Below are positions 196-61,203 of a stretch of DNA of 64,000 nucleotides, in pieces. Source of the DNA: a bacterium (GTDB lineage Bacteria; Patescibacteriota; CPR2; UBA1875; JAJYID01); NCBI GenBank assembly GCA_021787535.1, contig JAJYLR010000001.1, positions 211,648 through 275,647 of the forward strand, written 5' to 3'. The number at the start of each line of letters is the position of its first letter. Positions within the stretch are counted from its first letter, which is position 1. A program made the translations under genes and the position numbers. The notes beneath the pieces were generated by a model, which was given only the letters and a program-made list of their open reading frames with translations, had not been told where the DNA came from and ran no database searches.

Positions 196-1263
196 GTGGA
201 GTATACGGACAAAGAATTGCAGGCAAGAGAGATGCGCAAGTCGGATGAGAAGATCAAAGACATCATAACTGCAACGGACTTGTCTAAGGATCATATTAAG
301 GCTTGCACAAAAGACATCTGGGAGGCGAAACAAACAGAACGTTTAAGAAAGAAGCAAAAGGCCCAGGAACTTTTCAAACTCGGAGTTGCGAGAAAAGAAA
401 TTAGAGCTCAGCTTGAAATCGGCGAAAATGCTCTACGAAATTATCTTCGCGACTTCGTAGGACCTAAACTTGACTTTGATTCCTTGCGAGAAGAAGTCAG
501 AGAAGAGTTTGTAACGTTAGCGGAGAAGATTATGGCGGATCCGTCAGATCATCCTGGGACAAGTATTACTGCTGTAATTTCCAAGAAATTTCCAGAAGTA
601 TCCAAGGCCTTTATAAAAGATCATGTGAAAGATCTCTACAAAAGGCTTAAGTTTATAGACTGCAAAGAAGGAGATTGGACTGATCCCAAAACTGGCAAAA
701 GGTATGTCAACAAGCATTTTCTGGTAGAACACCTTGACTGGTGTGAAACGCAGGTATTCAAATGCTTGGCTAATGAGAGTGTAGGATATAAGGAATTCTA
801 CACTAACAGTAAAACAAGCCCTGTCAGCAGGTTTTATGGTTATGAGGAGCTGAAAGCTAAATCACCTCGGATCAGGGAGCGATTGGCAAAGATAGAGGAG
901 GTCACTGAAAAAATCTCTAGGGATGGTTCTCTAGAGAAGCTTCTCAAGACATACGAACCGCAACTGAAAGTTCTCTGCGTTATGCTGGATTGGCAAAACA
1001 GAGAGGGTTACTGGCCAAGTAACCGGCAGATTGCCGACTTTCTAGGTGAAACGGTAGGTGATGTAAAAAATCATGTAAATGGGCTTGTAAAAGCTGGTAT
1101 TATCACTGTGGAATGGGCATATAAGGGCGATGTGAAAAGTCAGAAGGTAGTAAAAGTTCATTCAGGACCTCCTTCGCTTATCACGGTACCAATAACTTGT
1201 CCTCATTGTGATCATGCTTTTCAAAGGGCCAGGGATTATGTTGAAAACGGGGCTGAGCCGTAG
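196..1263 (+). CDS. Hypothetical DNA-binding protein with HTH-like segments and a C-terminal CPHCDH zinc-finger-like motif
   Basis: 355 aa ORF with GTG start and GAGGTGA RBS at 185-191. HTH-like stretches GVARKEIRAQLEIGENALRNYL and NRQIADFLGETVGDVKNHVNGLVKAGII. CxxC...H near the C-terminus. Confidence 0.5.
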   Translation: MEYTDKELQAREMRKSDEKIKDIITATDLSKDHIKACTKDIWEAKQTERLRKKQKAQELFKLGVARKEIRAQLEIGENALRNYLRDFVGPKLDFDSLREEVREEFVTLAEKIMADPSDHPGTSITAVISKKFPEVSKAFIKDHVKDLYKRLKFIDCKEGDWTDPKTGKRYVNKHFLVEHLDWCETQVFKCLANESVGYKEFYTNSKTSPVSRFYGYEELKAKSPRIRERLAKIEEVTEKISRDGSLEKLLKTYEPQLKVLCVMLDWQNREGYWPSNRQIADFLGETVGDVKNHVNGLVKAGIITVEWAYKGDVKSQKVVKVHSGPPSLITVPITCPHCDHAFQRARDYVENGAEP

Positions 1264-3825: not shown

Positions 3826-3841
3826 ATTATACTATAATGTA

Positions 3842-3869
3842 TTGTCATCCTGAACTTGATTCAGGATCC
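3842..3869. repeat. Hairpin repeat, minus orientation (TGTCATCC-ctgaacttgattcagg-ATCC)
   Basis: Inverted-repeat motif of the GAATGACA family. Forms an inverted pair with the element at 3882-3912. Confidence 0.6.
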
Positions 3870-3881
3870 AGATTTATTTAT

Positions 3882-3912
3882 ATAGATTCCGGATCAAGTC
3901 CGGAATGACAAA
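3882..3912. repeat. Hairpin repeat, plus orientation (ATAGATTCC-ggatcaagtccgg-AATGACAAA)
   Basis: Matches copies at 31671, 32367, 43202 and 50788. Lies immediately upstream of the argS start. Confidence 0.65.
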
Positions 3913-3917
3913 AAATT

Positions 3918-5594
3918 ATGAACGATGAACTGAAAAAATCTATTTATGAAGCGGTAAAAGCTCAGCAAAAAAGTTGCGGGTGCAGTTTTGATATTCCTGA
4001 AATCGAAATCGAAAATCCGAAAGATCCGAAGTTTGGGGATTTATCGACTAATATTGCGATGAAGATAGGCAAGATGCAGGGAAAGAATCCGATGGCGATT
4101 GCCGAGAATTTGGTGAAAGGACTGGATTCCCGCCTTCGCGGGAATGACAAAAAAGGGGGCCAGAATGATAAATTGGGCGGAATGATCAAGAAAGTGGAAG
4201 CGGTGAAGCCGGGATTTATCAATTTTTATTTCAGCCTTGATTATTATCAGGGAAAAGTTAGGGAAATTTTATCAGCTGGTCGAAAATATGCCGATTTAAG
4301 TATTGGAAAAGGGCAGAAGGTGCAGGTTGAGTTTATTTCGGCAAATCCAACCGGACCGCTGACGCTGGCAAACGGGCGAGGAGGTTTTAGCGGTGATGTC
4401 CTTGCTAATGTTTTCAAAAAAGCCGGGTTTAAAACTGAACGGGAATATTATGTCAATGACGGCGGAAATCAGGTAAAGGTTCTCGGGGATTCTATTTTAG
4501 CCGCAGCAAAACTAGTTCCTAACAAAGAAGATAATTACCGTGGCGATTACATTGAGAAATGGGCAAAAGAACATTATGGTGAATGTGCAGAGCTAAAAGA
4601 TAATTCATTTGAACTTGGCAAGATTGCCGCAAAAGATATTTTAGAAACCTTAATTCAGCCGGTTATTGGGAAAATGGGAATCGAGTTTGACAGCTGGTTT
4701 AGTGAAAAAGAGATGACCGGACGGGGTGAGGTAGATGAGACAATTCAGTTTTTAAAAGATAATCATCTGACAAAGTCTGAAGACGATGCTCTTTGGATGA
4801 AGACCACTGAGTTTGGTGACGACAAAAATCGGGTTTTGGTAAAAAAAGACTGTGAAAAGACATATTTTGCAAATGATATTGCCTATCACTACGACAAATT
4901 CGCGAAAAGGAAATTCGACAAAGTGATTGACCTCTGGGGTGCCGACCATCACGGTTATGTCGGTCGGATGCAGGCGGCTGTTGAAGCGATGGGCTTTGCC
5001 GGAAAGCTGGATATAGTGATTTTCCAAATGGTTCGACTCATAAAGGATGGTAAGGAATACAAGATGTCCAAGCGAAAGGGTACTTATGTGACCATAGATG
5101 AATTATTTGATCTCATTGGCATCAAAGATGCCGCCGATGTCGTCCGTTTCTTCTTCATTTCTAAGGGATTTGACACGCATATGGACTTTGATCTTGATCT
5201 TGCCAAAGACACTTCCGAGAAAAACCCGGTTTATTATGTGAAATATGCATCAGCTAGAGTGAATGGTATTTTGCGCAATGCAAAAGAAGATTTCTCTGCA
5301 GTAAATCTGAAATTAATTAAAGAACCGGCGGAACTTGACCTAATTAAAAAACTGTCAGAGTTGCCGGAGCTGGTAGAGCAAGTCGCCACCGATAAAAAAT
5401 ATCCGGTGCACAAGTTTACCTATTACATTACGGAAGTTGCGGAGAAATTCCACAGGTTCTATCACGACTGCAGGGTGATTTCGGACGACGCGGAACTAAC
5501 CAAAGCCAGATTGGCGCTTGTTGCCGCCACAAAGAATGTCCTGGAAATAACGGGAGAAGACATTCTCGGTATTGACATGCCGGAGAGGATGTAA
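3918..5594 (+). CDS. argS: Arginine--tRNA ligase
   Basis: 558 aa. HHGYVGRMQAAVEAMG and KMSKRKGTYVTIDEL (KMSKS-type) motifs. GFINFYF N-terminal motif. Confidence 0.9.
   Translation: MNDELKKSIYEAVKAQQKSCGCSFDIPEIEIENPKDPKFGDLSTNIAMKIGKMQGKNPMAIAENLVKGLDSRLRGNDKKGGQNDKLGGMIKKVEAVKPGFINFYFSLDYYQGKVREILSAGRKYADLSIGKGQKVQVEFISANPTGPLTLANGRGGFSGDVLANVFKKAGFKTEREYYVNDGGNQVKVLGDSILAAAKLVPNKEDNYRGDYIEKWAKEHYGECAELKDNSFELGKIAAKDILETLIQPVIGKMGIEFDSWFSEKEMTGRGEVDETIQFLKDNHLTKSEDDALWMKTTEFGDDKNRVLVKKDCEKTYFANDIAYHYDKFAKRKFDKVIDLWGADHHGYVGRMQAAVEAMGFAGKLDIVIFQMVRLIKDGKEYKMSKRKGTYVTIDELFDLIGIKDAADVVRFFFISKGFDTHMDFDLDLAKDTSEKNPVYYVKYASARVNGILRNAKEDFSAVNLKLIKEPAELDLIKKLSELPELVEQVATDKKYPVHKFTYYITEVAEKFHRFYHDCRVISDDAELTKARLALVAATKNVLEITGEDILGIDMPERM
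4124..4155. repeat. Hairpin repeat inserted in frame within argS (GGATTCC-cgccttcgcgg-GAATGACAAA)
   Basis: Same motif as intergenic copies. Encodes DSRLRGNDKKG in the ArgS frame. Degenerate gccagaatgat and ggcggaatgat follow at about 4158-4190. Confidence 0.6.
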
Positions 5595-10008: not shown

Positions 10009-13000
10009 ATGGAAGATTTGCTGAAGGGTTTGAATAAAGAGCAGAAGGAAGCCGTTACTCACGACAAGGGACCTCTCTTAATCGTGGCCGGAGCCGGGAC
10101 AGGGAAAACGACTGTTATCACTCGGCGGATCGCCTGGTTAATCGCGCAAAAGCTGGCGTTACCTTCTGAGATTCTAGCCCTCACTTTTACCGATAAAGCA
10201 GCCGGTGAGATGGAGGAGCGGGTCGACGAACTTGTGCCTTACGGATTCGTCGACACCTGGATATCCACTTTTCACGCTTTCGGCGATCGTATTTTGCGCG
10301 ATCATGCTCTTGATCTCGGACTGACGACCGATTTTCGGGTTTTGTCCAAGCCGGAGCAAGTGATTTTCATGCAAGACAATTTGGAAGCCTTTGATCTAAA
10401 ATATTTCTCGCCGCTTGGCAATCCGACCAAGCACATCGATGCGCTTCTCGGCCACTTCTCAAAGCTGAAAGATGAAATAATTTCACCGGCCGAGTATTTA
10501 GGGTTTGCCGATAAGAAATTAAAGTCGGCTCAGGATTCTGACGAAAAACTCGAAGCGGAGAAGACGTTAGAAATTGCCAGAGCTTACGAAAGGTATCAGG
10601 AGCTGATGGCGGAAGCCGGCAATCTCGACTTCGGCGACCAGATAAATATACTCATTCATTTATTGAAAACCCAGCCGGCGATCTTGAAAAAATACCAGAA
10701 GCAGTGCAAATACATCTTGGTCGATGAATTTCAGGACACAAACTACGCCCAGAACGAACTACTGAAGTTATTAGCCGGGGGAAAGGATTCTGGTCAAGCC
10801 AAAATGACCCACGCACCGCTTCAGGGTGCGGGGCAGGCACAGGGTGGCCACGGAAATATCACAGTGGTTGGTGATGATGACCAGTCGATTTACCGTTTCC
10901 GCGGCGCCGCCATTTCAAACATTTTGCAGTTCCCGAAAGATTACCCGAGATGCAAGCAAATAGTTCTAACGGAAAACTACCGTTCGACACAGGCGATTTT
11001 GGACAGCGCCTATAAATTAATAAAACACAACAATCCTGATCGTCTGGAAGTGAAGAATAATATTGTGAAGAAGCTGACTTCCAGGTTTGACGCCGACTCG
11101 GTTGAACCGATCCATTTGCATTCAGACACCCTGACTGCTGAGACGGACCGGGTGGCGAAAATGATCAAAGAATATTTCGACGAAGGCAGATATTCGTTCA
11201 AGGACTTCGCTATTCTCTCGCGGTCGCGCCGAAACGCGGAAGATTTCATTCACGCTCTAAACCATTACGGCATTCCTTATAAATTCTCAGGTTCTTCCGG
11301 CTTATATTCTAGAGCCGAAATCCGCTTGTTAATAAATTTCGCCAAGGTTTTAATTTCATCCGGTGACAATCTGGCCTTCTATCATTTAATTACATCAGAT
11401 GTTTATGGAATGAATGTGTCGGAGGCGGTGAAACTAAATGAAATCTCACAGAAAAACAAACGAAGTCTGAATGATGTGGCGAACGCAATTAACTTTTCAA
11501 AATCAAAATCTGACTGGATTCCCGCCTCCGCGGGAATGACAGACGAGGCAAGGGCAATTTTAGATAGGGCATTGAAGGATTTGAAAAATTTCCGCGAAGA
11601 ATCAAAGAAGCTGACCGCCGGACAGGTGATTTACATGTTTTTGAAAGAAACGGGGTATTTGTCAAAACTAGTGACGGAGTCCGAGAAGAGCGCGGAGGCG
11701 CAAGTGGCCATCCAGAATATCGCCAAGTTTTTTGAAAGAATCGGTGATTTTGAAAAAGTCTCGGAGGATAAAAGTATTGTGAACTTCGTCCGTCACTTGA
11801 AAGCTCTGATGGATGCCGGTGATGATCCGGCAATGGCCGAGGTCGATCCGGATCTTGAGGCGGTCAGTGTGCTTACGGTTCACTCGGCTAAAGGATTAGA
11901 GTTTCCGGTAGTGTTTGTGGTCTCGCTTGTCTCGGACAGCTTCCCGACTCGCAAACGCGCCGAACAGTTGCCGATTCCGGAGGAATTAATTAAAGAGTCT
12001 TTACCGGAGGGCGACTGGCACCTGCAAGAAGAGCGGCGGCTCTTCTACGTCGGCATGACCAGAGCCAAAGAAATTCTGTACCTAACGAGCGCCGAGGATT
12101 ATGGCGGAAAGAGGGCGCGCAAGGTTTCCCAGTTCGTTCTGGAGGCGATTGATAAGCCGGCTTCGGCGAAAGAAAAGGTGAAGCTTGATAAAGTTGAGGT
12201 GATCAAGAGGTTCAAAAAGCGCGATGAGATTGTAATTCCCAAGAAATTCTACGATGGCAAGGGACTCTTAACCCTAAATCCGCATCAGATAGATGACTAT
12301 CTGTCATGTCCGAAGAAGTTTGAATATATCCATATTCTGCGTGTGCCGATCATGACCCACCACTCGGTGGTCTATGGTTCGGCAATACATAAGGCGATTG
12401 AAGCGTATTTTGTAGCGAAAAAAGCCGGCAAAAAGGTCAGTTTGGATGATTTAATAGAAGTCTTTAGCGCAAATTGGCGAAGCGAGGGATTTATTACCCG
12501 CGAACACGAGGACAAAAGGTTTAATCAGGGGAAGAAATCGCTTGGTGAATTTTTCGCCAGAGAAGAAGGCAAGAAGCCGCCGGAGGAAGTGGAAGCGAAG
12601 TTTGAAATACCGCTAAAGGATCTCAATGTGAAAATTCGCGGCCGATTTGATGCAGTATATGTCAAATGTAAAACGGAAAATGTTAAATGTGAACAAACCG
12701 AAATCCGCGACTTTAAAACTTCAGAGGTTGAGAATCAAGAGCAAGCAGACAAAAAAGCCAAGACGAATAGGCAATTATCAGTTTACGCGCTGGCCAAGCA
12801 AACCGAAACAGGTATCATCCCGGAAGTGTCGCTTTATTTCGTCGATTCGGGGTTGGTTGGGAAGGTTCAAAAGAAAGAAAAAGATCTAGACAAGGTTCGC
12901 GGGGAAATTGAGAAAGTAGTCGAAGGGATTAAAAAGGAAAACTTCAAAGCTTCTCCCGGATTTGGTGAGTGTTCGCGCTGCGCCTACCGAGAGATTTGTC

Positions 13001-13020
13001 CGTTTACACTATCGAAATGA
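10009..13020 (+). CDS. UvrD/PcrA-family ATP-dependent DNA helicase fused to a C-terminal PD-(D/E)XK nuclease with a Cys cluster (AddA/AddB-Cas4-like)
   Basis: Walker A GAGTGKTTV, DEFQDTNYAQ, VVGDDDQSIYRFRGA. C-terminal RFDAVY...EIRDFKTS...QLSVYALA nuclease motifs plus CPKKF...CSRCAYREICP Fe-S-type cysteines. Confidence 0.85.
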   Translation: MEDLLKGLNKEQKEAVTHDKGPLLIVAGAGTGKTTVITRRIAWLIAQKLALPSEILALTFTDKAAGEMEERVDELVPYGFVDTWISTFHAFGDRILRDHALDLGLTTDFRVLSKPEQVIFMQDNLEAFDLKYFSPLGNPTKHIDALLGHFSKLKDEIISPAEYLGFADKKLKSAQDSDEKLEAEKTLEIARAYERYQELMAEAGNLDFGDQINILIHLLKTQPAILKKYQKQCKYILVDEFQDTNYAQNELLKLLAGGKDSGQAKMTHAPLQGAGQAQGGHGNITVVGDDDQSIYRFRGAAISNILQFPKDYPRCKQIVLTENYRSTQAILDSAYKLIKHNNPDRLEVKNNIVKKLTSRFDADSVEPIHLHSDTLTAETDRVAKMIKEYFDEGRYSFKDFAILSRSRRNAEDFIHALNHYGIPYKFSGSSGLYSRAEIRLLINFAKVLISSGDNLAFYHLITSDVYGMNVSEAVKLNEISQKNKRSLNDVANAINFSKSKSDWIPASAGMTDEARAILDRALKDLKNFREESKKLTAGQVIYMFLKETGYLSKLVTESEKSAEAQVAIQNIAKFFERIGDFEKVSEDKSIVNFVRHLKALMDAGDDPAMAEVDPDLEAVSVLTVHSAKGLEFPVVFVVSLVSDSFPTRKRAEQLPIPEELIKESLPEGDWHLQEERRLFYVGMTRAKEILYLTSAEDYGGKRARKVSQFVLEAIDKPASAKEKVKLDKVEVIKRFKKRDEIVIPKKFYDGKGLLTLNPHQIDDYLSCPKKFEYIHILRVPIMTHHSVVYGSAIHKAIEAYFVAKKAGKKVSLDDLIEVFSANWRSEGFITREHEDKRFNQGKKSLGEFFAREEGKKPPEEVEAKFEIPLKDLNVKIRGRFDAVYVKCKTENVKCEQTEIRDFKTSEVENQEQADKKAKTNRQLSVYALAKQTETGIIPEVSLYFVDSGLVGKVQKKEKDLDKVRGEIEKVVEGIKKENFKASPGFGECSRCAYREICPFTLSK
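10785..10833. repeat. Composite repeat in frame in the helicase gene (ggattctggtcaagccaaaatgac + ccacgcaccg..gtgcgggg hairpin)
   Basis: First half matches the 23271/30893/61144 family. Second half matches 32411-32437. Encodes DSGQAKMTHAPLQGAGQ just before the VVGDDDQ motif. Confidence 0.55.
11517..11546. repeat. Hairpin repeat in frame in the helicase gene (GGATTCC-cgcctccgcgg-GAATGACAGA)
   Basis: Near-identical to copies at 4124 and 61178. Encodes IPASAGMTD. Confidence 0.6.
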
Positions 13021-21173: not shown

Positions 21174-21965
21174 ATGGATAAATATATTAAAGATTTAGAT
21201 AAAATCCTTTCCGAAGAGTTTCTTTCATTAAAAAAAGAGATTAAGAGCCAAAAGCTCGGGGTTCTTTTTTCCGGAGGAGTAGACAGTTCCCTTATTGCCA
21301 GGTTAGGCGAAGATACCGGACTAAACCCCATTCTTTACAGTTTCGGAACCGAAAAATCCAAAGACAGGCAGTTTGTTTTTGACTTTGCGAGCGATATGAA
21401 AATGCCGCTTGTTTTTGAAGAGGTTAAAACCGGTGAGATTGAAAAAAATATTCCATTGATTAGAGAAGAACTGGCTAAAATCGGCGAGGACCCGAATCCT
21501 ATGCAAGTCGCTCTTGCAGTCGGAGTTTATCTGGTTGGGAAAAAGGCAAAAGCAGACAATGTTAAATTTATGCTGTGCGGGCAGGGGTCTGATGAGCTTT
21601 TTGCCGGATACAAGAAATATGAGGGGTTAAAAGACGATGATTTGCAAAAATCTTTGGAGCGCGACATTGAATCTGTAATGAGATCGGATATCGCCCGCGA
21701 TGCCCATATGCTATCGCTTTCCGGCATTAAACTTTTCGCGCCGTATACCAGCCAAGAATTTATCGACTATGCCCTGAAAATCCCGCTTGAATATAAAGTT
21801 TCGGGCGATACAAAAAAATTTATAATTCGCAAAGTCGCGGAAAAACGCGGACTCCCCGACTATATTTGCGAACGTCCTAAAAATGCCATGCAGTATTCAT
21901 CCGGAATCCAGAAAGTTGTCTCAAAAGTTTGTAAAGCGGAAAGGCAAAATGGACAAACTGCTTGA
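21174..21965 (+). CDS. Stand-alone asparagine synthetase C-terminal-domain-like PP-loop ATP pyrophosphatase (no glutaminase domain)
   Basis: PP-loop LFSGGVDSS and MLCGQGSDELFAGYKKY resemble the AsnB synthetase domain (SGGLDSS / GEGADELFGGY). 263 aa. Confidence 0.65.
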   Translation: MDKYIKDLDKILSEEFLSLKKEIKSQKLGVLFSGGVDSSLIARLGEDTGLNPILYSFGTEKSKDRQFVFDFASDMKMPLVFEEVKTGEIEKNIPLIREELAKIGEDPNPMQVALAVGVYLVGKKAKADNVKFMLCGQGSDELFAGYKKYEGLKDDDLQKSLERDIESVMRSDIARDAHMLSLSGIKLFAPYTSQEFIDYALKIPLEYKVSGDTKKFIIRKVAEKRGLPDYICERPKNAMQYSSGIQKVVSKVCKAERQNGQTA

Positions 21966-23658
21966 AAAAGTAATTCAAGAATCCATTGGCCGAAAAATAG
22001 TTTCAGATGAGGATTTTCTAACTTTAATTAAAGAAAATTTCAAAGGCAAGTCTGAGGCGAAGTTCCCCTCAAATATTGAAATAAGGAAGAAGTACCGGTG
22101 CATGGTTAATAGAGGGATAATACCGCCAAGTCCGGCGCTGGAAAAAATATTGGTTACCAAAAAGATGCGTTCTCTCTCCGGTGTGGCTGTTATCACGGTC
22201 TTGACCAAACCTTGGCCGTGTCCGGGCAAATGCCTGTATTGCCCGGTTCAGGAAAACGTGCCAAAGAGCTATCTTGCAAGCGAACCGGCAGTGATGAGAG
22301 CGATTTTGTGCGAGTACGATCCCTACAAACAGGTGAAAGCTCGGCTAGATTCACTGGCACTAGAAGGCCATCCGACTGACAAGATTGAACTCATTGTTAT
22401 CGGCGGGACATTTTCAGTGTTACCAAGAGATTATCAGGAAGAATACATAAAGTTATGCCTCGATGCATTGAACGGTACAAAAAGCAAAGATCTAAACAAG
22501 GCAAAAAGGGCAAATGAAACAGCCGAGCATCGTCTAGTCGGGCTGACACTCGAAACTCGGCCTGACTATATTACGAAAAAAGAAGTTGAGCGGATGAGAT
22601 ATCTTGGTACGACAAGAGTCGAGCTGGGTGTGCAGTCTGTTTTTGATGAAGTTCTAAAATTTAACAAACGTGGTGCGACTAATGAAGATACAATTTGTGC
22701 GACGCAACTTTTGAAGGATGCGGGACTAAAAATCTGCTACCATATGATGCCCGGACTGCCGGATTCGGATTTAAAAAAAGACCTGGAAATGTTTAAAGTT
22801 ATTTTTACTGATCCGAGATTTCAGCCGGATTACGTAAAGATTTATCCCTGTATGGTAACGAAGGGTTCAGAACTTTATGAGTTTTGGAAATCCGGAAAGT
22901 ATAGGCCTTACACCGACAAGGAATTAGAAAGTTTAATCTGCGAAATTAAAAAGACCGTGCCATATCAAGTGCGGATCATGCGGCTTATTCGCGATATCCC
23001 TTCCACAGATATTGAGGCAGGTTCAAAAGTGACAAATTTACGGCAAAACGTGCAAAAGAAATTACAATCAGAAGGGGTGAGGTGTAAATGTATCCGCTGT
23101 CGGGAAGCGGGATTATTAAAGAAAGATGAAAAAGTAAAAAGTAAAAATTTCTCCTTTGTCATCCCGAGCGACTTCGCGGAGCGACGAGTCGAGGGATCCC
23201 TTCCAGAAAATGATCAATTCCTAATCTCTAATGGCCAATCAATCTCCAATGATCAAAAATCAAGAAGAATGGATTCTGGGCAAGCCAGAATGACATTGTT
23301 GCGTGATGAGTATGAGGCGAGTGGCGGAAAGGAATTTTTTTTGAGTTACGAGACGGGGGATAGAAGTGTCCTGTCCGCTCTTTTACGCTTAAGATTACCC
23401 GGCGAAACGTATTTGCCGGAGTTAAAAGATGCGGCTCTAATCCGCGAAGTCCATACCTATGGCCAGCAGATCGAAATCGGCAAAAGGGGCGATACTCAGC
23501 ACAAAGGGTTGGGCAAAAAATTAATTACGAAAGCTGAGCAGTTGGCGTGCAAAAACGGTTACAAAAAAGCTGCCGTCATCTCCGGGGTCGGTGTCCGTGA
23601 TTATTACCGAAAACTTGGTTATGAACTTGATGGTGAGTATATGATCAAATTGTTATAA
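21946..23658 (+). CDS. elp3: Elp3-like tRNA uridine(34) carboxymethyl-modifying radical SAM / GNAT acetyltransferase
   Basis: Radical-SAM Cys cluster KPWPCPGKCLYCP. C-terminal GNAT region IREVHTYGQQIEIGKRGDTQHKGLGKKLITKAEQLA is typical of Elp3. The likely ATG at 21946 overlaps the upstream gene by 20 nt. The ORF-track start is 21883. Confidence 0.8.
   Translation, partial: KMDKLLEKVIQESIGRKIVSDEDFLTLIKENFKGKSEAKFPSNIEIRKKYRCMVNRGIIPPSPALEKILVTKKMRSLSGVAVITVLTKPWPCPGKCLYCPVQENVPKSYLASEPAVMRAILCEYDPYKQVKARLDSLALEGHPTDKIELIVIGGTFSVLPRDYQEEYIKLCLDALNGTKSKDLNKAKRANETAEHRLVGLTLETRPDYITKKEVERMRYLGTTRVELGVQSVFDEVLKFNKRGATNEDTICATQLLKDAGLKICYHMMPGLPDSDLKKDLEMFKVIFTDPRFQPDYVKIYPCMVTKGSELYEFWKSGKYRPYTDKELESLICEIKKTVPYQVRIMRLIRDIPSTDIEAGSKVTNLRQNVQKKLQSEGVRCKCIRCREAGLLKKDEKVKSKNFSFVIPSDFAERRVEGSLPENDQFLISNGQSISNDQKSRRMDSGQARMTLLRDEYEASGGKEFFLSYETGDRSVLSALLRLRLPGETYLPELKDAALIREVHTYGQQIEIGKRGDTQHKGLGKKLITKAEQLACKNGYKKAAVISGVGVRDYYRKLGYELDGEYMIKLL
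23155..23200. repeat. Hairpin repeat in frame within elp3, minus orientation (TGTCATCC-cgagcgacttcgcggagcgacgagtcgag-GGATCC)
   Basis: Flanking TGTCATCC/GGATCC as in the family at 3842 and 27068. Encodes FVIPSDFAERRVEGS in the linker between the radical-SAM and GNAT domains. Confidence 0.5.
23271..23298. repeat. Hairpin repeat in frame within elp3 (GGATTCTGG-gcaag-CCAGAATGACA)
   Basis: Matches copies at 30893, 61144 (reverse) and 10785. Encodes MDSGQARMTL. Confidence 0.55.
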
Positions 23659-28677: not shown

Positions 28678-28754
28678 CGGGGTGTGGCGCAGTTGGCTAG
28701 CGCGCAGCGTTCGGGACGCTGAGGTCGGAAGTTCGAGTCTTCTCACCCCGACCA
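28678..28754 (+). tRNA. tRNA-Pro (anticodon CGG)
   Basis: Cloverleaf: acceptor cggggtg/caccccg, D arm gcgc-agttggcta-gcgc, anticodon stem cagcg/cgctg with loop ttCGGga, T arm ggaag-ttcgagt-cttct. Discriminator A and encoded CCA. Confidence 0.85.
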
Positions 28755-32366: not shown

Positions 32367-32437
32367 ATAGATTCCCGCCTGCGCGGGAATGACAAAGGAT
32401 GGCGGGAATGACCCACGCACCGTTAGATGTGCGGGGC
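32367..32437. repeat. Composite repeat: ATAGATTCC-cgcctgcgcgg-GAATGACAAAGG followed by ggcgggaatgac + ccacgcaccg-ttagat-gtgcgggg
   Basis: Two family members fused. The second half is shared with 10805-10833. Confidence 0.6.
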
Positions 32438-38592: not shown

Positions 38593-38602
38593 GGTGTTAG
38601 TT

Positions 38603-43201: not shown

Positions 43202-45292
<2,091 letters not shown>

Positions 45293-51569: not shown

Positions 51570-51750
51570 TTACAAGCATTTGAATACAAAAAAGGAGGGG
51601 TAACAAATCTGGCAACAGATAAGTGTTGTTTTATGCGTTGAATTCAAAGCAAAAGAACTTTGAAAACTGAAAAGTAGAGAAAACAAAGTCACGTCAATTT
51701 GAACGAGTATCACAACTCAAATTATCAGGAAAGCTTGTCTTTCCACTTTT

Positions 51751-53282
<1,532 letters not shown>

Positions 53283-53535: not shown

Positions 53536-53613
53536 TGCGCGTGTAGCTCAGCTGGTTAGAGCGCCACACTGATAATGTGGAGGTCCCTGGTTCAAGTCCA
53601 GGCACGCGCACCA
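53536..53613 (+). tRNA. tRNA-Ile (anticodon GAT)
   Basis: Acceptor gcgcgtg/cacgcgc, anticodon stem ccaca/tgtgg with loop ctGATaa, T arm cctgg-ttcaagt-ccagg, CCA encoded. Confidence 0.85.
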
Positions 53614-53912: not shown

Positions 53913-53989
53913 GGGCCCGTAGCTCAGTTGGCTAGAGCGCCTCGTTTGCACCGAGGAGGTCGCAGGTTCGATTCCTGTCGGGTCCACCA
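53913..53989 (+). tRNA. tRNA-Ala (anticodon TGC)
   Basis: Acceptor gggcccg/cgggtcc with the G3:U70 alanine identity pair. Anticodon stem cctcg/cgagg with loop ttTGCac. CCA encoded. Confidence 0.85.
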
Positions 53990-55917: not shown

Positions 55918-56400
55918 CTACAAAGCCTTTTTTAATTCATCAACCGATTTTCTAACTATATCTAATTGGTTTTGAGTTTTCATTTCTCTTCTCGCATAAT
56001 CCATAATCTCTTTTACTTCTTGCACCTTTCCTTTCCATCGTTTTAGCATCCAGGGGTGCCAAGGGAAAAGCCAGATATGGAAGTGAGAGGTCGAGGTATT
56101 CTCCTCCTGAATAACAGTGACATAAGATATTTTCAGGGCAGAGCGCATCACTTTTCTTAAATCGTGCAAAAATTTTGTTAGCTCTGTCAGTTCAGTGTCG
56201 TTCATTTCATCAATTGAAAGGACGTGCCTCTTTGATGCAATAATTACGAATCCTTCGATCGGATATTCAAGGTCTTGTTCGGCGACAAAGTTGTCTGTTT
56301 CTGCAATCCTTTCGATGGGCAGCTGAATGGTTCCGTTTTGGATCGAGCATGCGATGCAATCAATATTATGTGTTTTTCCTTTTATATCTACGATTTCCAT
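55918..56400 (-). CDS. HIT (histidine triad) family hydrolase
   Basis: Histidine triad HFHIWLFP near the C-terminus. 160 aa. Confidence 0.65.
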   Translation of the reverse strand: MEIVDIKGKTHNIDCIACSIQNGTIQLPIERIAETDNFVAEQDLEYPIEGFVIIASKRHVLSIDEMNDTELTELTKFLHDLRKVMRSALKISYVTVIQEENTSTSHFHIWLFPWHPWMLKRWKGKVQEVKEIMDYARREMKTQNQLDIVRKSVDELKKAL

Positions 56401-61143: not shown

Positions 61144-61167
61144 GTCATTCTGGCTTGGCCAGAATCA
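61144..61167. repeat. Hairpin repeat, minus orientation (CGTCATTCTGG-cttgg-CCAGAATC)
   Basis: Reverse complement of the 30893 copy. Confidence 0.55.
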
Positions 61168-61177
61168 AAGATTGGCT

Positions 61178-61203
61178 GGATTCCCGCCTTCGCGGGAATG
61201 ACA
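61178..61203. repeat. Hairpin repeat (GGATTCC-cgccttcgcgg-GAATGACAAA)
   Basis: Identical core to the in-frame copy at 4124. Confidence 0.65.

Follow-up and report, generated by a model that had tools for sequence, protein, structure and literature searches.

An in-frame CGTC-1-type palindromic repeat in the argS gene of an uncultured bacterium, apparently layered on an older repeat

The argS gene on contig JAJYLR010000001.1 (GCA_021787535.1) of an uncultured bacterium raises the question of whether an essential aminoacyl-tRNA synthetase carries a translated copy of a short palindromic repeat and, if so, how the repeat came to lie there. For this, a stretch of 64,000 nt (positions 211,648 to 275,647 of the contig), in the following called the window, was analyzed. 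The gene is located at 3918-5594 on the plus strand, encodes an arginyl-tRNA synthetase (ArgRS) of 558 aa and is listed as one open reading frame (ORF) that is intact through the repeat. Its orthologues contain the Pfam domains PF03485, PF00750 and PF05746, and their alignment revealed that the ArgRS of the window retains every residue that is invariant in the family. A sequence-only reading of the window had claimed that a hairpin repeat with further degenerate copies is translated within this gene and that the case resembles the insertions known from Rickettsia proteins. The explanation favoured here, which is considered highly probable, is the tolerated insertion of a CGTC-1 repeat that is layered on an older repeat.

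The repeat was detected in argS as the 32-mer GGATTCCCGCCTTCGCGGGAATGACAAAAAAG at 4124-4155. Its in-frame translation is LDSRLRGNDKKG and the ORF runs uninterrupted from 3918 to 5594, which bears out the claim that the repeat is read in frame. Within this segment, GGATTCCCGCCTTCGCGGGAATGAC at 4124-4148 is translated as L69-DSRLRGND-77. On the minus strand, a complete unit of the family known as CGTC-1 REP, NTS or SRM was identified at 4122-4149 (TGTCATTCCCGCGAAGGCGGGAATCCAG), consisting of a TGTC tag, an 8-bp stem, a 4-nt loop and a CCA tail; read on the plus strand, the same positions encode L69-D77 (LDSRLRGND). The unit is a perfect hairpin of 28 nt, with the stem arms ATTCCCGC and GCGGGAAT corresponding to the plus-strand positions 4126-4133 and 4138-4145 and the loop GAAG located at 4134-4137. 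As single-stranded DNA (ssDNA), either strand is folded into the 8-bp stem and the 4-nt loop with -8.7 to -8.9 kcal/mol (z of about -3.5). Five of the six reading frames of the unit are free of stop codons. In the coding orientation, a TGA interrupts one frame and two frames remain open, both of which are seen in use (DSRLRGND and WIPA.AGMT).

Near-copies of the 32-mer were found in the window at 61178 (2 mismatches in 32 positions) and on the minus strand at 38599 (3 mismatches), with none expected by chance. Over 28 nt, the argS unit is identical to the intergenic CGTC-1 unit at 61176-61203 (minus strand), which forms a pair with the CTGG-type unit 61144-61166 in inverted orientation. The two copies that had been described as intergenic and nearly identical are to be distinguished: the description is correct for 61178, whereas the copy at 11517 is near-identical (2 of 31 bases differ at 11513-11543) but lies within the helicase ORF 10009-13020. 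A search with Rfam gave no family at the hairpins of the window, the sole matches being the 16S rRNA and three tRNAs. The scan for promoters and terminators around argS resulted in nothing above chance, and an intrinsic terminator formed by the argS hairpin was rejected by the terminator scan.

Relative to orthologous ArgRS, the repeat is part of an insertion of 60 nt at 4125-4184 (plus strand), comprising codons 70-89 with the peptide DSRLRGNDKKGGQNDKLGGM and directly preceding the GFINFYF motif. Among 117 aligned ArgRS, the loop between the helix ending in AENLVKGL and the strand IKKVEAV most frequently has 5 residues, and that of the window, with 20 residues, is the longest. The insertion is missing in 110 of the 117 proteins, and the solved structures of the Pyrococcus horikoshii and human enzymes (2zue and 4q2t) have a gap at this site. 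The alignment proposed as a check in the sequence-only reading hence returned an indel, and the peptide of about 20 residues predicted there corresponds to residues 70-89. Chance similarity and conserved ancestral residues were ruled out as explanations by the orthologue alignments. Judged from these sequences, the 20 residues appear to be an in-frame, repeat-derived insertion in the N-terminal part of a synthetase that is essential.

The AlphaFold model of the window ArgRS agrees with the solved ArgRS structures and has a mean predicted local distance difference test (pLDDT) value of 94.5, compared to about 70 across residues 71-90. It contains a helix at 58-74, a coil at 75-89 and strands at 90-96 and 100-105, the latter strand holding GFINFY with N102, which is invariant in the ArgRS family. 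The surface position that had been expected from the sequence was thus examined on a model, in which the insert is predicted to be an extension of a helix end followed by a poorly defined, low-confidence loop of the N-terminal Add-1 domain.

For the assignment of the argS unit to a family, its 28-mer was compared with published motifs. There is one mismatch (C1 to T) to the Neisseria NTS consensus CGTCATTCCCGCGMAVGCGGGAATCYRG, the core ATTCCC-N8-GGGAAT is that of the Neisseria dRS3 repeat, and the unit fits the degenerate SRM (Ssn-related motif) pattern of Chenal et al. (2025, PMC11893778), which has 5 matches in the window vs. 0.09 expected. The features defining CGTC-1 are all present, namely the TGTC tag, an 8-bp stem starting with AT, a 4-nt loop and the CCA tail (GGGAAT followed by CCAG), and a repeated family with inverted dimers was found within the 64 kb. 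The element accordingly belongs to one widespread family that has been named CGTC-1 REP, Neisseria dRS3/NTS, SRM and Rickettsia RPE-6. CGTC-1 was equated with Neisseria dRS3 and with RPE-6 of R. conorii by Di Nocera, De Gregorio and Rocco (2013, BMC Genomics, PMC3733652), who also described that the CGTC tag is often TGTC and that the families are multi-copy, often arranged as inverted pairs and present in several stem subtypes per genome. The resemblance to Rickettsia RPE insertions, which had been put forward as a parallel, appears to be literal, since CGTC-1 has been equated with RPE-6 (PMC3733652) and the identical 28-mer was found in an isoleucyl-tRNA synthetase (IleRS)-like ORF of a Rickettsia endosymbiont.

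Across the window, about 16 hairpins share one architecture, GATTC, stem, loop, stem, GAATGAC, with the four stem subtypes CCCGC/GCGGG, CCGGA/TCCGG, CTGG(C)/(G)CCAG and CCTGAA/TTCAGG. Six of them are CGTC-1 units and about ten belong to other stem subtypes. In 16 aligned copies, 97.3% of the positions are paired and compensatory changes occur at five of seven stem pairs. As both are far above shuffled and slid controls, the structure with its fixed flanks is considered to be conserved beyond the sequence. Inverted pairs are located at 3844/3885, 50746/50788 and 61144/61179, and identical units are found in both orientations, in unrelated genes as well as in spacers. About 4 of the 16 units are located within genes, each of these four in frame.

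The history of the argS site was reconstructed by comparing the DNA of six ArgRS relatives (P0002 to P0007) at the position of the insert. P0004, P0005 and P0007 contain a hairpin of the CTGG/CCAG subtype (GATTCTGG...CCAGAATGAC) with an identical start codon and frame (GAT TCT GG), translated as DSGLGQND, DSGQARMT and DPGLVRMT, and these hairpins are decayed to a varying degree. No hairpin is present at the site in P0002, P0003 and P0006. P0002, with 76% identity the closest relative, has no repeat there, and P0006 may have a deleted or decayed remnant (GATTC..AGCCAG.AAT). In a neighbour-joining tree, the seven ArgRS form a clade (97% bootstrap) with four carriers, and carriers and non-carriers are interleaved in it. 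The nearest named ArgRS relative is assigned to candidate division WS5, and more distant ones are labelled Patescibacteria.

In the window, the orphan 3′ arm and tag of an older REP with a CTGG/CCAG stem was identified at 4158-4169 on the plus strand (GGCCAGAATGAT), where the relatives keep the whole hairpin. The 10-mer GCCAGAATGA has four occurrences in the window vs. 0.24 expected, and the other three are located within full hairpins. Since only the 3′ arm of the old repeat is kept in argS, the perfect CGTC-type unit is regarded as the newer one, replacing the 5′ half of its predecessor. The argS event would then be a new copy over an older repeat, not one simple insertion. The two further degenerate units assumed in the sequence-only reading differ in this respect, as the 10-mer count and the intact hairpin of the relatives confirm the second one, whereas a repeat origin of the third one (4176-4186, plus strand, GGCGGAATGAT) is not supported. 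It is matched twice within one mismatch vs. 1.5 expected, which is the level of chance, and is aligned with the native GAA-ATT-GAT codons (E-I/V-D/E-K) of repeat-free orthologues.

Other origins of this arrangement have to be weighed against a layered, tolerated insertion. The source is an uncultured organism with a metagenome-assembled genome (MAG), and short repeats can mislead assemblers, so that an assembly or binning artefact has to be considered. The flanks are, however, collinear with orthologous argS genes, the frame and the invariant residues are kept, and independent assemblies of three other species contain a repeat at the same codon. Furthermore, a unit of 28 nt would rarely break an assembly, and an artefact is hardly credible. 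A more substantial alternative is that the site is a hot spot at which each lineage acquired its repeat independently, with no single ancestral insertion that was later overwritten. On the tree, carriers alternate with non-carriers, and about three events are needed under either history. In line with a hot spot, relatives of two other genes of the window, a helicase and an Elp3-like gene, have repeats at shared spots that differ in type and even in orientation, and different REPs were reported at about one recB site in two Xanthomonas species (PMC3733652). On the other hand, P0004, P0005, P0007 and the remnant of the window share stem subtype, start codon and frame, and P0006 has the apparent deleted remnant described above. 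Because subtype, codon and frame are identical, a single ancestral insertion is favoured, and independent insertions are given a real but minor chance.

Two further explanations concern the function of the insert. If the hairpin were kept for a role at the RNA level, such as ribosome pausing or an RNase or stability signal, the peptide would be a by-product. The perfect stem and the co-variation of the stems in the family are compatible with such a role, many REPs are argued to be transcribed and to act as RNA elements (PMC3733652), and several intergenic copies stand immediately before start codons (3885-3909 for argS, 43205-43229 for gyrB). This role is nevertheless improbable in view of P0002, which has no repeat, of the decayed stems at the site in P0007 and P0006, and of the identical units that occur in either orientation in unrelated genes and spacers; the sole partner shown by experiment binds the motif as ssDNA, not as RNA (PMC11893778). 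Even less likely is an adaptive surface loop with a new interaction with tRNA, with a partner protein or with the host cell of an episymbiont, for which the location in the N-terminal domain near the invariant Asn102 of GFINF and the presence of an insert in four of the seven clade members could be cited. The peptide is set by the repeat and is wholly different among the relatives (DSRLRGND, DSGLGQND, DSGQARMT, DPGLVRMT), the same peptides occur in unrelated proteins, the model is of low confidence without a defined structure across the loop, and the nearest relative has no insert.

For the layered insertion, the following course of events is proposed. After codon 69 of argS, a first repeat of the CTGG/CCAG subtype would have been inserted, probably already in the common ancestor of the small WS5-related clade. 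In the lineage of the window, a second, still perfect CGTC-1 unit has taken the place of the 5′ half of the older repeat. The combined sequence adds 20 residues, located at a helix end and in a floppy loop within the N-terminal Add-1 domain; this loop is short and variable in other ArgRS. The insert is presumably selfish or neutral DNA of no use to the enzyme and would persist due to the kept frame, the missing stop codon and the tolerant loop, and less fortunate insertions would have been purged. The repeats may spread as ssDNA hairpins that preferentially insert into or beside repeats already in place; deletions between short direct repeats, for instance GGATTC, may then trim them.

At argS itself, an insertion into or beside the old hairpin with subsequent deletion between two GGATTC direct repeats is a plausible route. 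It is supported by two observations: in the relatives L001, L002 and L006, the smpB-argS spacers contain hairpins that are nested in the loop of another hairpin, and a full unit is accompanied by an orphan arm in the intergenic region 32367-32412 of the window (minus strand), where the CGTC-1 unit 32367-32394 and the tagged arm GGCGGGAATGAC at 32401-32412 have the same layout as in argS.

The least certain step is the enzyme that mobilizes or processes the repeats. The most likely candidate is a GIY-YIG nuclease of the Ssn type whose gene is located in another part of the genome or was present formerly. Ssn proteins are single-domain GIY-YIG nucleases that bind the hairpin of the motif as ssDNA and cut just upstream of it (Chenal et al., 2025, Nat Commun, PMC11893778), and ssnA genes (GIY-YIG cd10448) are typically flanked by the motif (PMC11893778). 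It is tentatively suggested that in this WS5/Patescibacteria-like lineage CGTC/SRM hairpins are still actively inserting with a preference for the loops or arms of resident repeats, moved by an Ssn-type or an unknown enzyme, and that a few codon positions in the essential genes for ArgRS, the AddA-like helicase and Elp3 are hot spots at which surface loops are repeatedly rewritten. If true, this would show how a repeat superfamily without a transposase moves.

Several points weigh against a tolerated insertion layered in this way. The ArgRS domain that holds the loop contacts the D-loop of the tRNA, and the invariant Asn102 is located just 13 residues downstream of the insert. Some effect of the insert on tRNA binding is therefore conceivable, and its neutrality is deduced from the position and the variability of the peptide. 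A search of metagenome contigs with the argS flanks resulted in zero matches and hence in no empty-site or intermediate allele, for which reason nested insertion followed by deletion, gene conversion between repeats and independent re-insertion at a hot spot are all compatible with the data as the order of events. Finally, Pfam scans of 46 ORFs of the window revealed no gene for a GIY-YIG/Ssn nuclease or a Y1 transposase within the 64 kb, about one tenth of the contig of 635,771 bp. The phmmer queries gave no Ssn match in the window either, and the same queries detected motif-flanked Ssn-like ORFs in three other genome stretches (L032, L051 and L102).

Besides argS, two further genes of the window contain translated inserts. 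In the ORF 10009-13020, encoding a UvrD/PD-(D/E)XK helicase-nuclease of 1003 aa, two inserts were identified that are indels relative to most of 30 orthologues. The first one (10783-10850, plus strand) consists of the imperfect REP GATTCTGGTCAAGCCAAAATGAC and a second palindrome and is translated as KDSGQAKMTHAPLQGAGQAQGG (KDSGQAKMT...). It is an indel with respect to 25 of the 30 orthologues, and relatives hold other REP peptides at this position. The second one (11514-11541, minus strand) is the CGTC-1 unit TGTCATTCCCGCGGAGGCGGGAATCCAG, read in frame as DWIPASAGMT. In close relatives, both spots are occupied by repeats in either orientation (GLDSRLRGNDK, GKDFGQARMT, SVIPAKAGIQ and FWTSLPRRQAGQND). 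The helicase varies from 958 to 1109 aa within the clade (proteins P0122-P0126, P0135 and P0140) due to repeat-derived inserts at a minimum of four hot spots, and the relatives P0125, P0134 and P0151 also contain Hint/intein domains.

The largest insert is a composite of 137 nt at 23158-23294 in the Elp3-like gene 21883-23658. It comprises a decayed REP (GTCATCCCGAG...GGGATC), a core of 72 nt and the intact unit GATTCTGGGCAAGCCAGAATGAC, the two REP units being inverted around the core, and is in frame with about 47 extra residues (FSFVIPS...MDSGQARM). The composite is missing in about 20 orthologues and occurs as variants in P0243 and P0244. The core encodes ...EGSLPENDQFLISNGQSISNDQ..., and the core peptide PISNFQS.SNDQ recurs in related genomes, where inserts of the helicase and Elp3 orthologues contain it. 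The composite looks like a member of an RPE-sized, MITE-like family that is specific to the clade.

Among the intergenic units, an inverted REP pair is located at 3844-3909 in the spacer between smpB and argS (3826-3917), with GTCATCCTGAACTTGATTCAGGATC at 3844-3868 and GATTCCGGATCAAGTCCGGAATGAC at 3885-3909, and ends 9 nt before the ATG of argS. The same pair is present in this spacer of the relative L003 (2892-3000), and in L001 (2836-3000) and L002 (2781-3000) the loops of the corresponding hairpins enclose further palindromes. In several cases, an intergenic unit reaches to within a few bases of a start codon, as at 3885-3909 upstream of argS and at 43205-43229 upstream of gyrB (43238). These units follow TATAGAT-like motifs, and no promoter was called by a simple scan. 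According to the GC skew, the plus strand is the leading strand, and about 12 of the 16 units have their tag in sense on the minus strand, a sample that is too small to be interpreted.

The distribution of the repeat in other lineages was analyzed by an exact 24-mer scan with one genome per species. The 24-mer was found in at least 120 genome stretches of many phyla, including Neisseria, Rickettsia, Saccharibacteria and a Nanoarchaeota MAG. In the Rickettsia endosymbiont of Polydrusus tereticollis, the IleRS-like ORF (L115, 862-4272) contains the identical 28-mer in frame as LDSRLRGND, within an in-frame composite of 130 nt that is flanked by two inverted copies of the argS 28-mer. A second repeat-derived stretch (…DTVDKPRYD…) is located further upstream in this ORF. 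The 24-mer is also in frame in GatB of a Saccharibacteria MAG (L024, 5981-7471), in P-type ATPases of two Patescibacteria MAGs (L056, 5713-7998, and L083, 3-1991), in the methylmalonyl-CoA mutase of Flavobacterium paronense (L072, 2423-4603) and in a DNA methylase of a Nanoarchaeota MAG (L047, 965-2716). As it is read in frame in these other lineages, translated copies are spread well beyond Rickettsia.

With CGTC-1 REPs, the repeats of the window share the tag, stem, loop and tail, the high copy number, the inverted pairs and the in-frame genic copies. In-frame intragenic CGTC REPs have been described, many of them in genes for DNA repair, including uvrA and those of UvrD-type helicases, and some in genes of tRNA synthetases; the inserts were argued to occupy loops or linkers (PMC3733652). 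In contrast to the cases of that study, the host is here an uncultured bacterium of 0.64 Mb near candidate division WS5 and Patescibacteria, and neither the case of argS nor a new repeat overlying an old one at one codon is found in it (PMC3733652). The Neisseria dRS3/NTS/SRM elements agree in core sequence, in the oriented hairpin and in their many copies. They differ in location, with 2% of the NTS of N. meningitidis inside genes (PMC11893778) vs. about 4 of the 16 units of the window, and in that the 64-kb window contains no ssnA gene; the protein partner and a role in the control of transformation are thus putative here.

In Rickettsia, RPEs are in-frame palindromic repeats in housekeeping genes of a reduced genome that are translated and tolerated on the protein surface (Ogata et al., 2000, 2002; summarized in PMC10969869), and in-frame copies were reported in helicases, uvrA and tRNA synthetases (PMC3733652; PMC10969869). 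The argS insert resembles them as a palindromic repeat in frame in a product that keeps its fold. Apart from the host phylum, the difference is in size, since elements of the RPE-1 class have about 100-150 bp, whereas the argS unit has 28 nt, or 60 nt with the remnants; only the Elp3 composite reaches RPE size. A link to RPE-6 is suggested by the equation in PMC3733652 and by the identical 28-mer in the Rickettsia endosymbiont. Like GTAG REPs and BIMEs with their RAYT transposases, the repeats of the window are short, tag-oriented extragenic palindromes that occur as dimers and are assumed to be mobile in the form of single-stranded hairpins. However, the tag is TGTC, not GTAG, and no Y1_Tnp match was found in the ORFs of the window. 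The GTAG repeats are a different superfamily. A literature search with the repeat sequence and the peptide strings as well as for palindromic in-frame repeats in the candidate phyla radiation returned nothing relevant.

The kind of event observed in argS was already described between 2000 and 2013, and the protein partner of the repeat in 2025. What is new is the gene, the lineage of the host and the fact that a young repeat is clearly layered over an old one. The locus is a clean and well-dated example of small palindromic repeats that are translated inside essential genes, and extends this to an ultra-small uncultured genome. The layout of old under new at one codon bears on the spread of repeats without a known transposase, and the knowledge of ArgRS is unchanged by the finding. 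For annotation, peptides like LDSRLRGND, WIPA.AGMT, VIPAKAGIQ and CHSREGGNP are to be taken as signatures of the repeat and not as protein homology.

In addition, the annotation of the window was reviewed. The 16S rRNA gene at 51747-53281 is of full length and contains no insertion; it is followed by tRNAs at 53537-53610 and 53913-53986, and a third tRNA is located at 28678-28751. The minus-strand ORFs 51694-52107 and 52327-52668 inside the 16S gene are spurious. For the ORF 55918-56400 (minus strand, 160 aa), an assignment as replication protein was rejected, as the Pfam match is below the cut-off and the motif HFHIWLFP of the protein resembles a histidine triad; the ORF probably encodes a HIT-like hydrolase and has no relation to the repeats. 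At the left edge of the window, the ORF 196-1263 (plus strand, 355 aa) contains an HTH_36 domain, has PHROG matches to phage replication-initiation proteins and may represent what is left of a mobile element.

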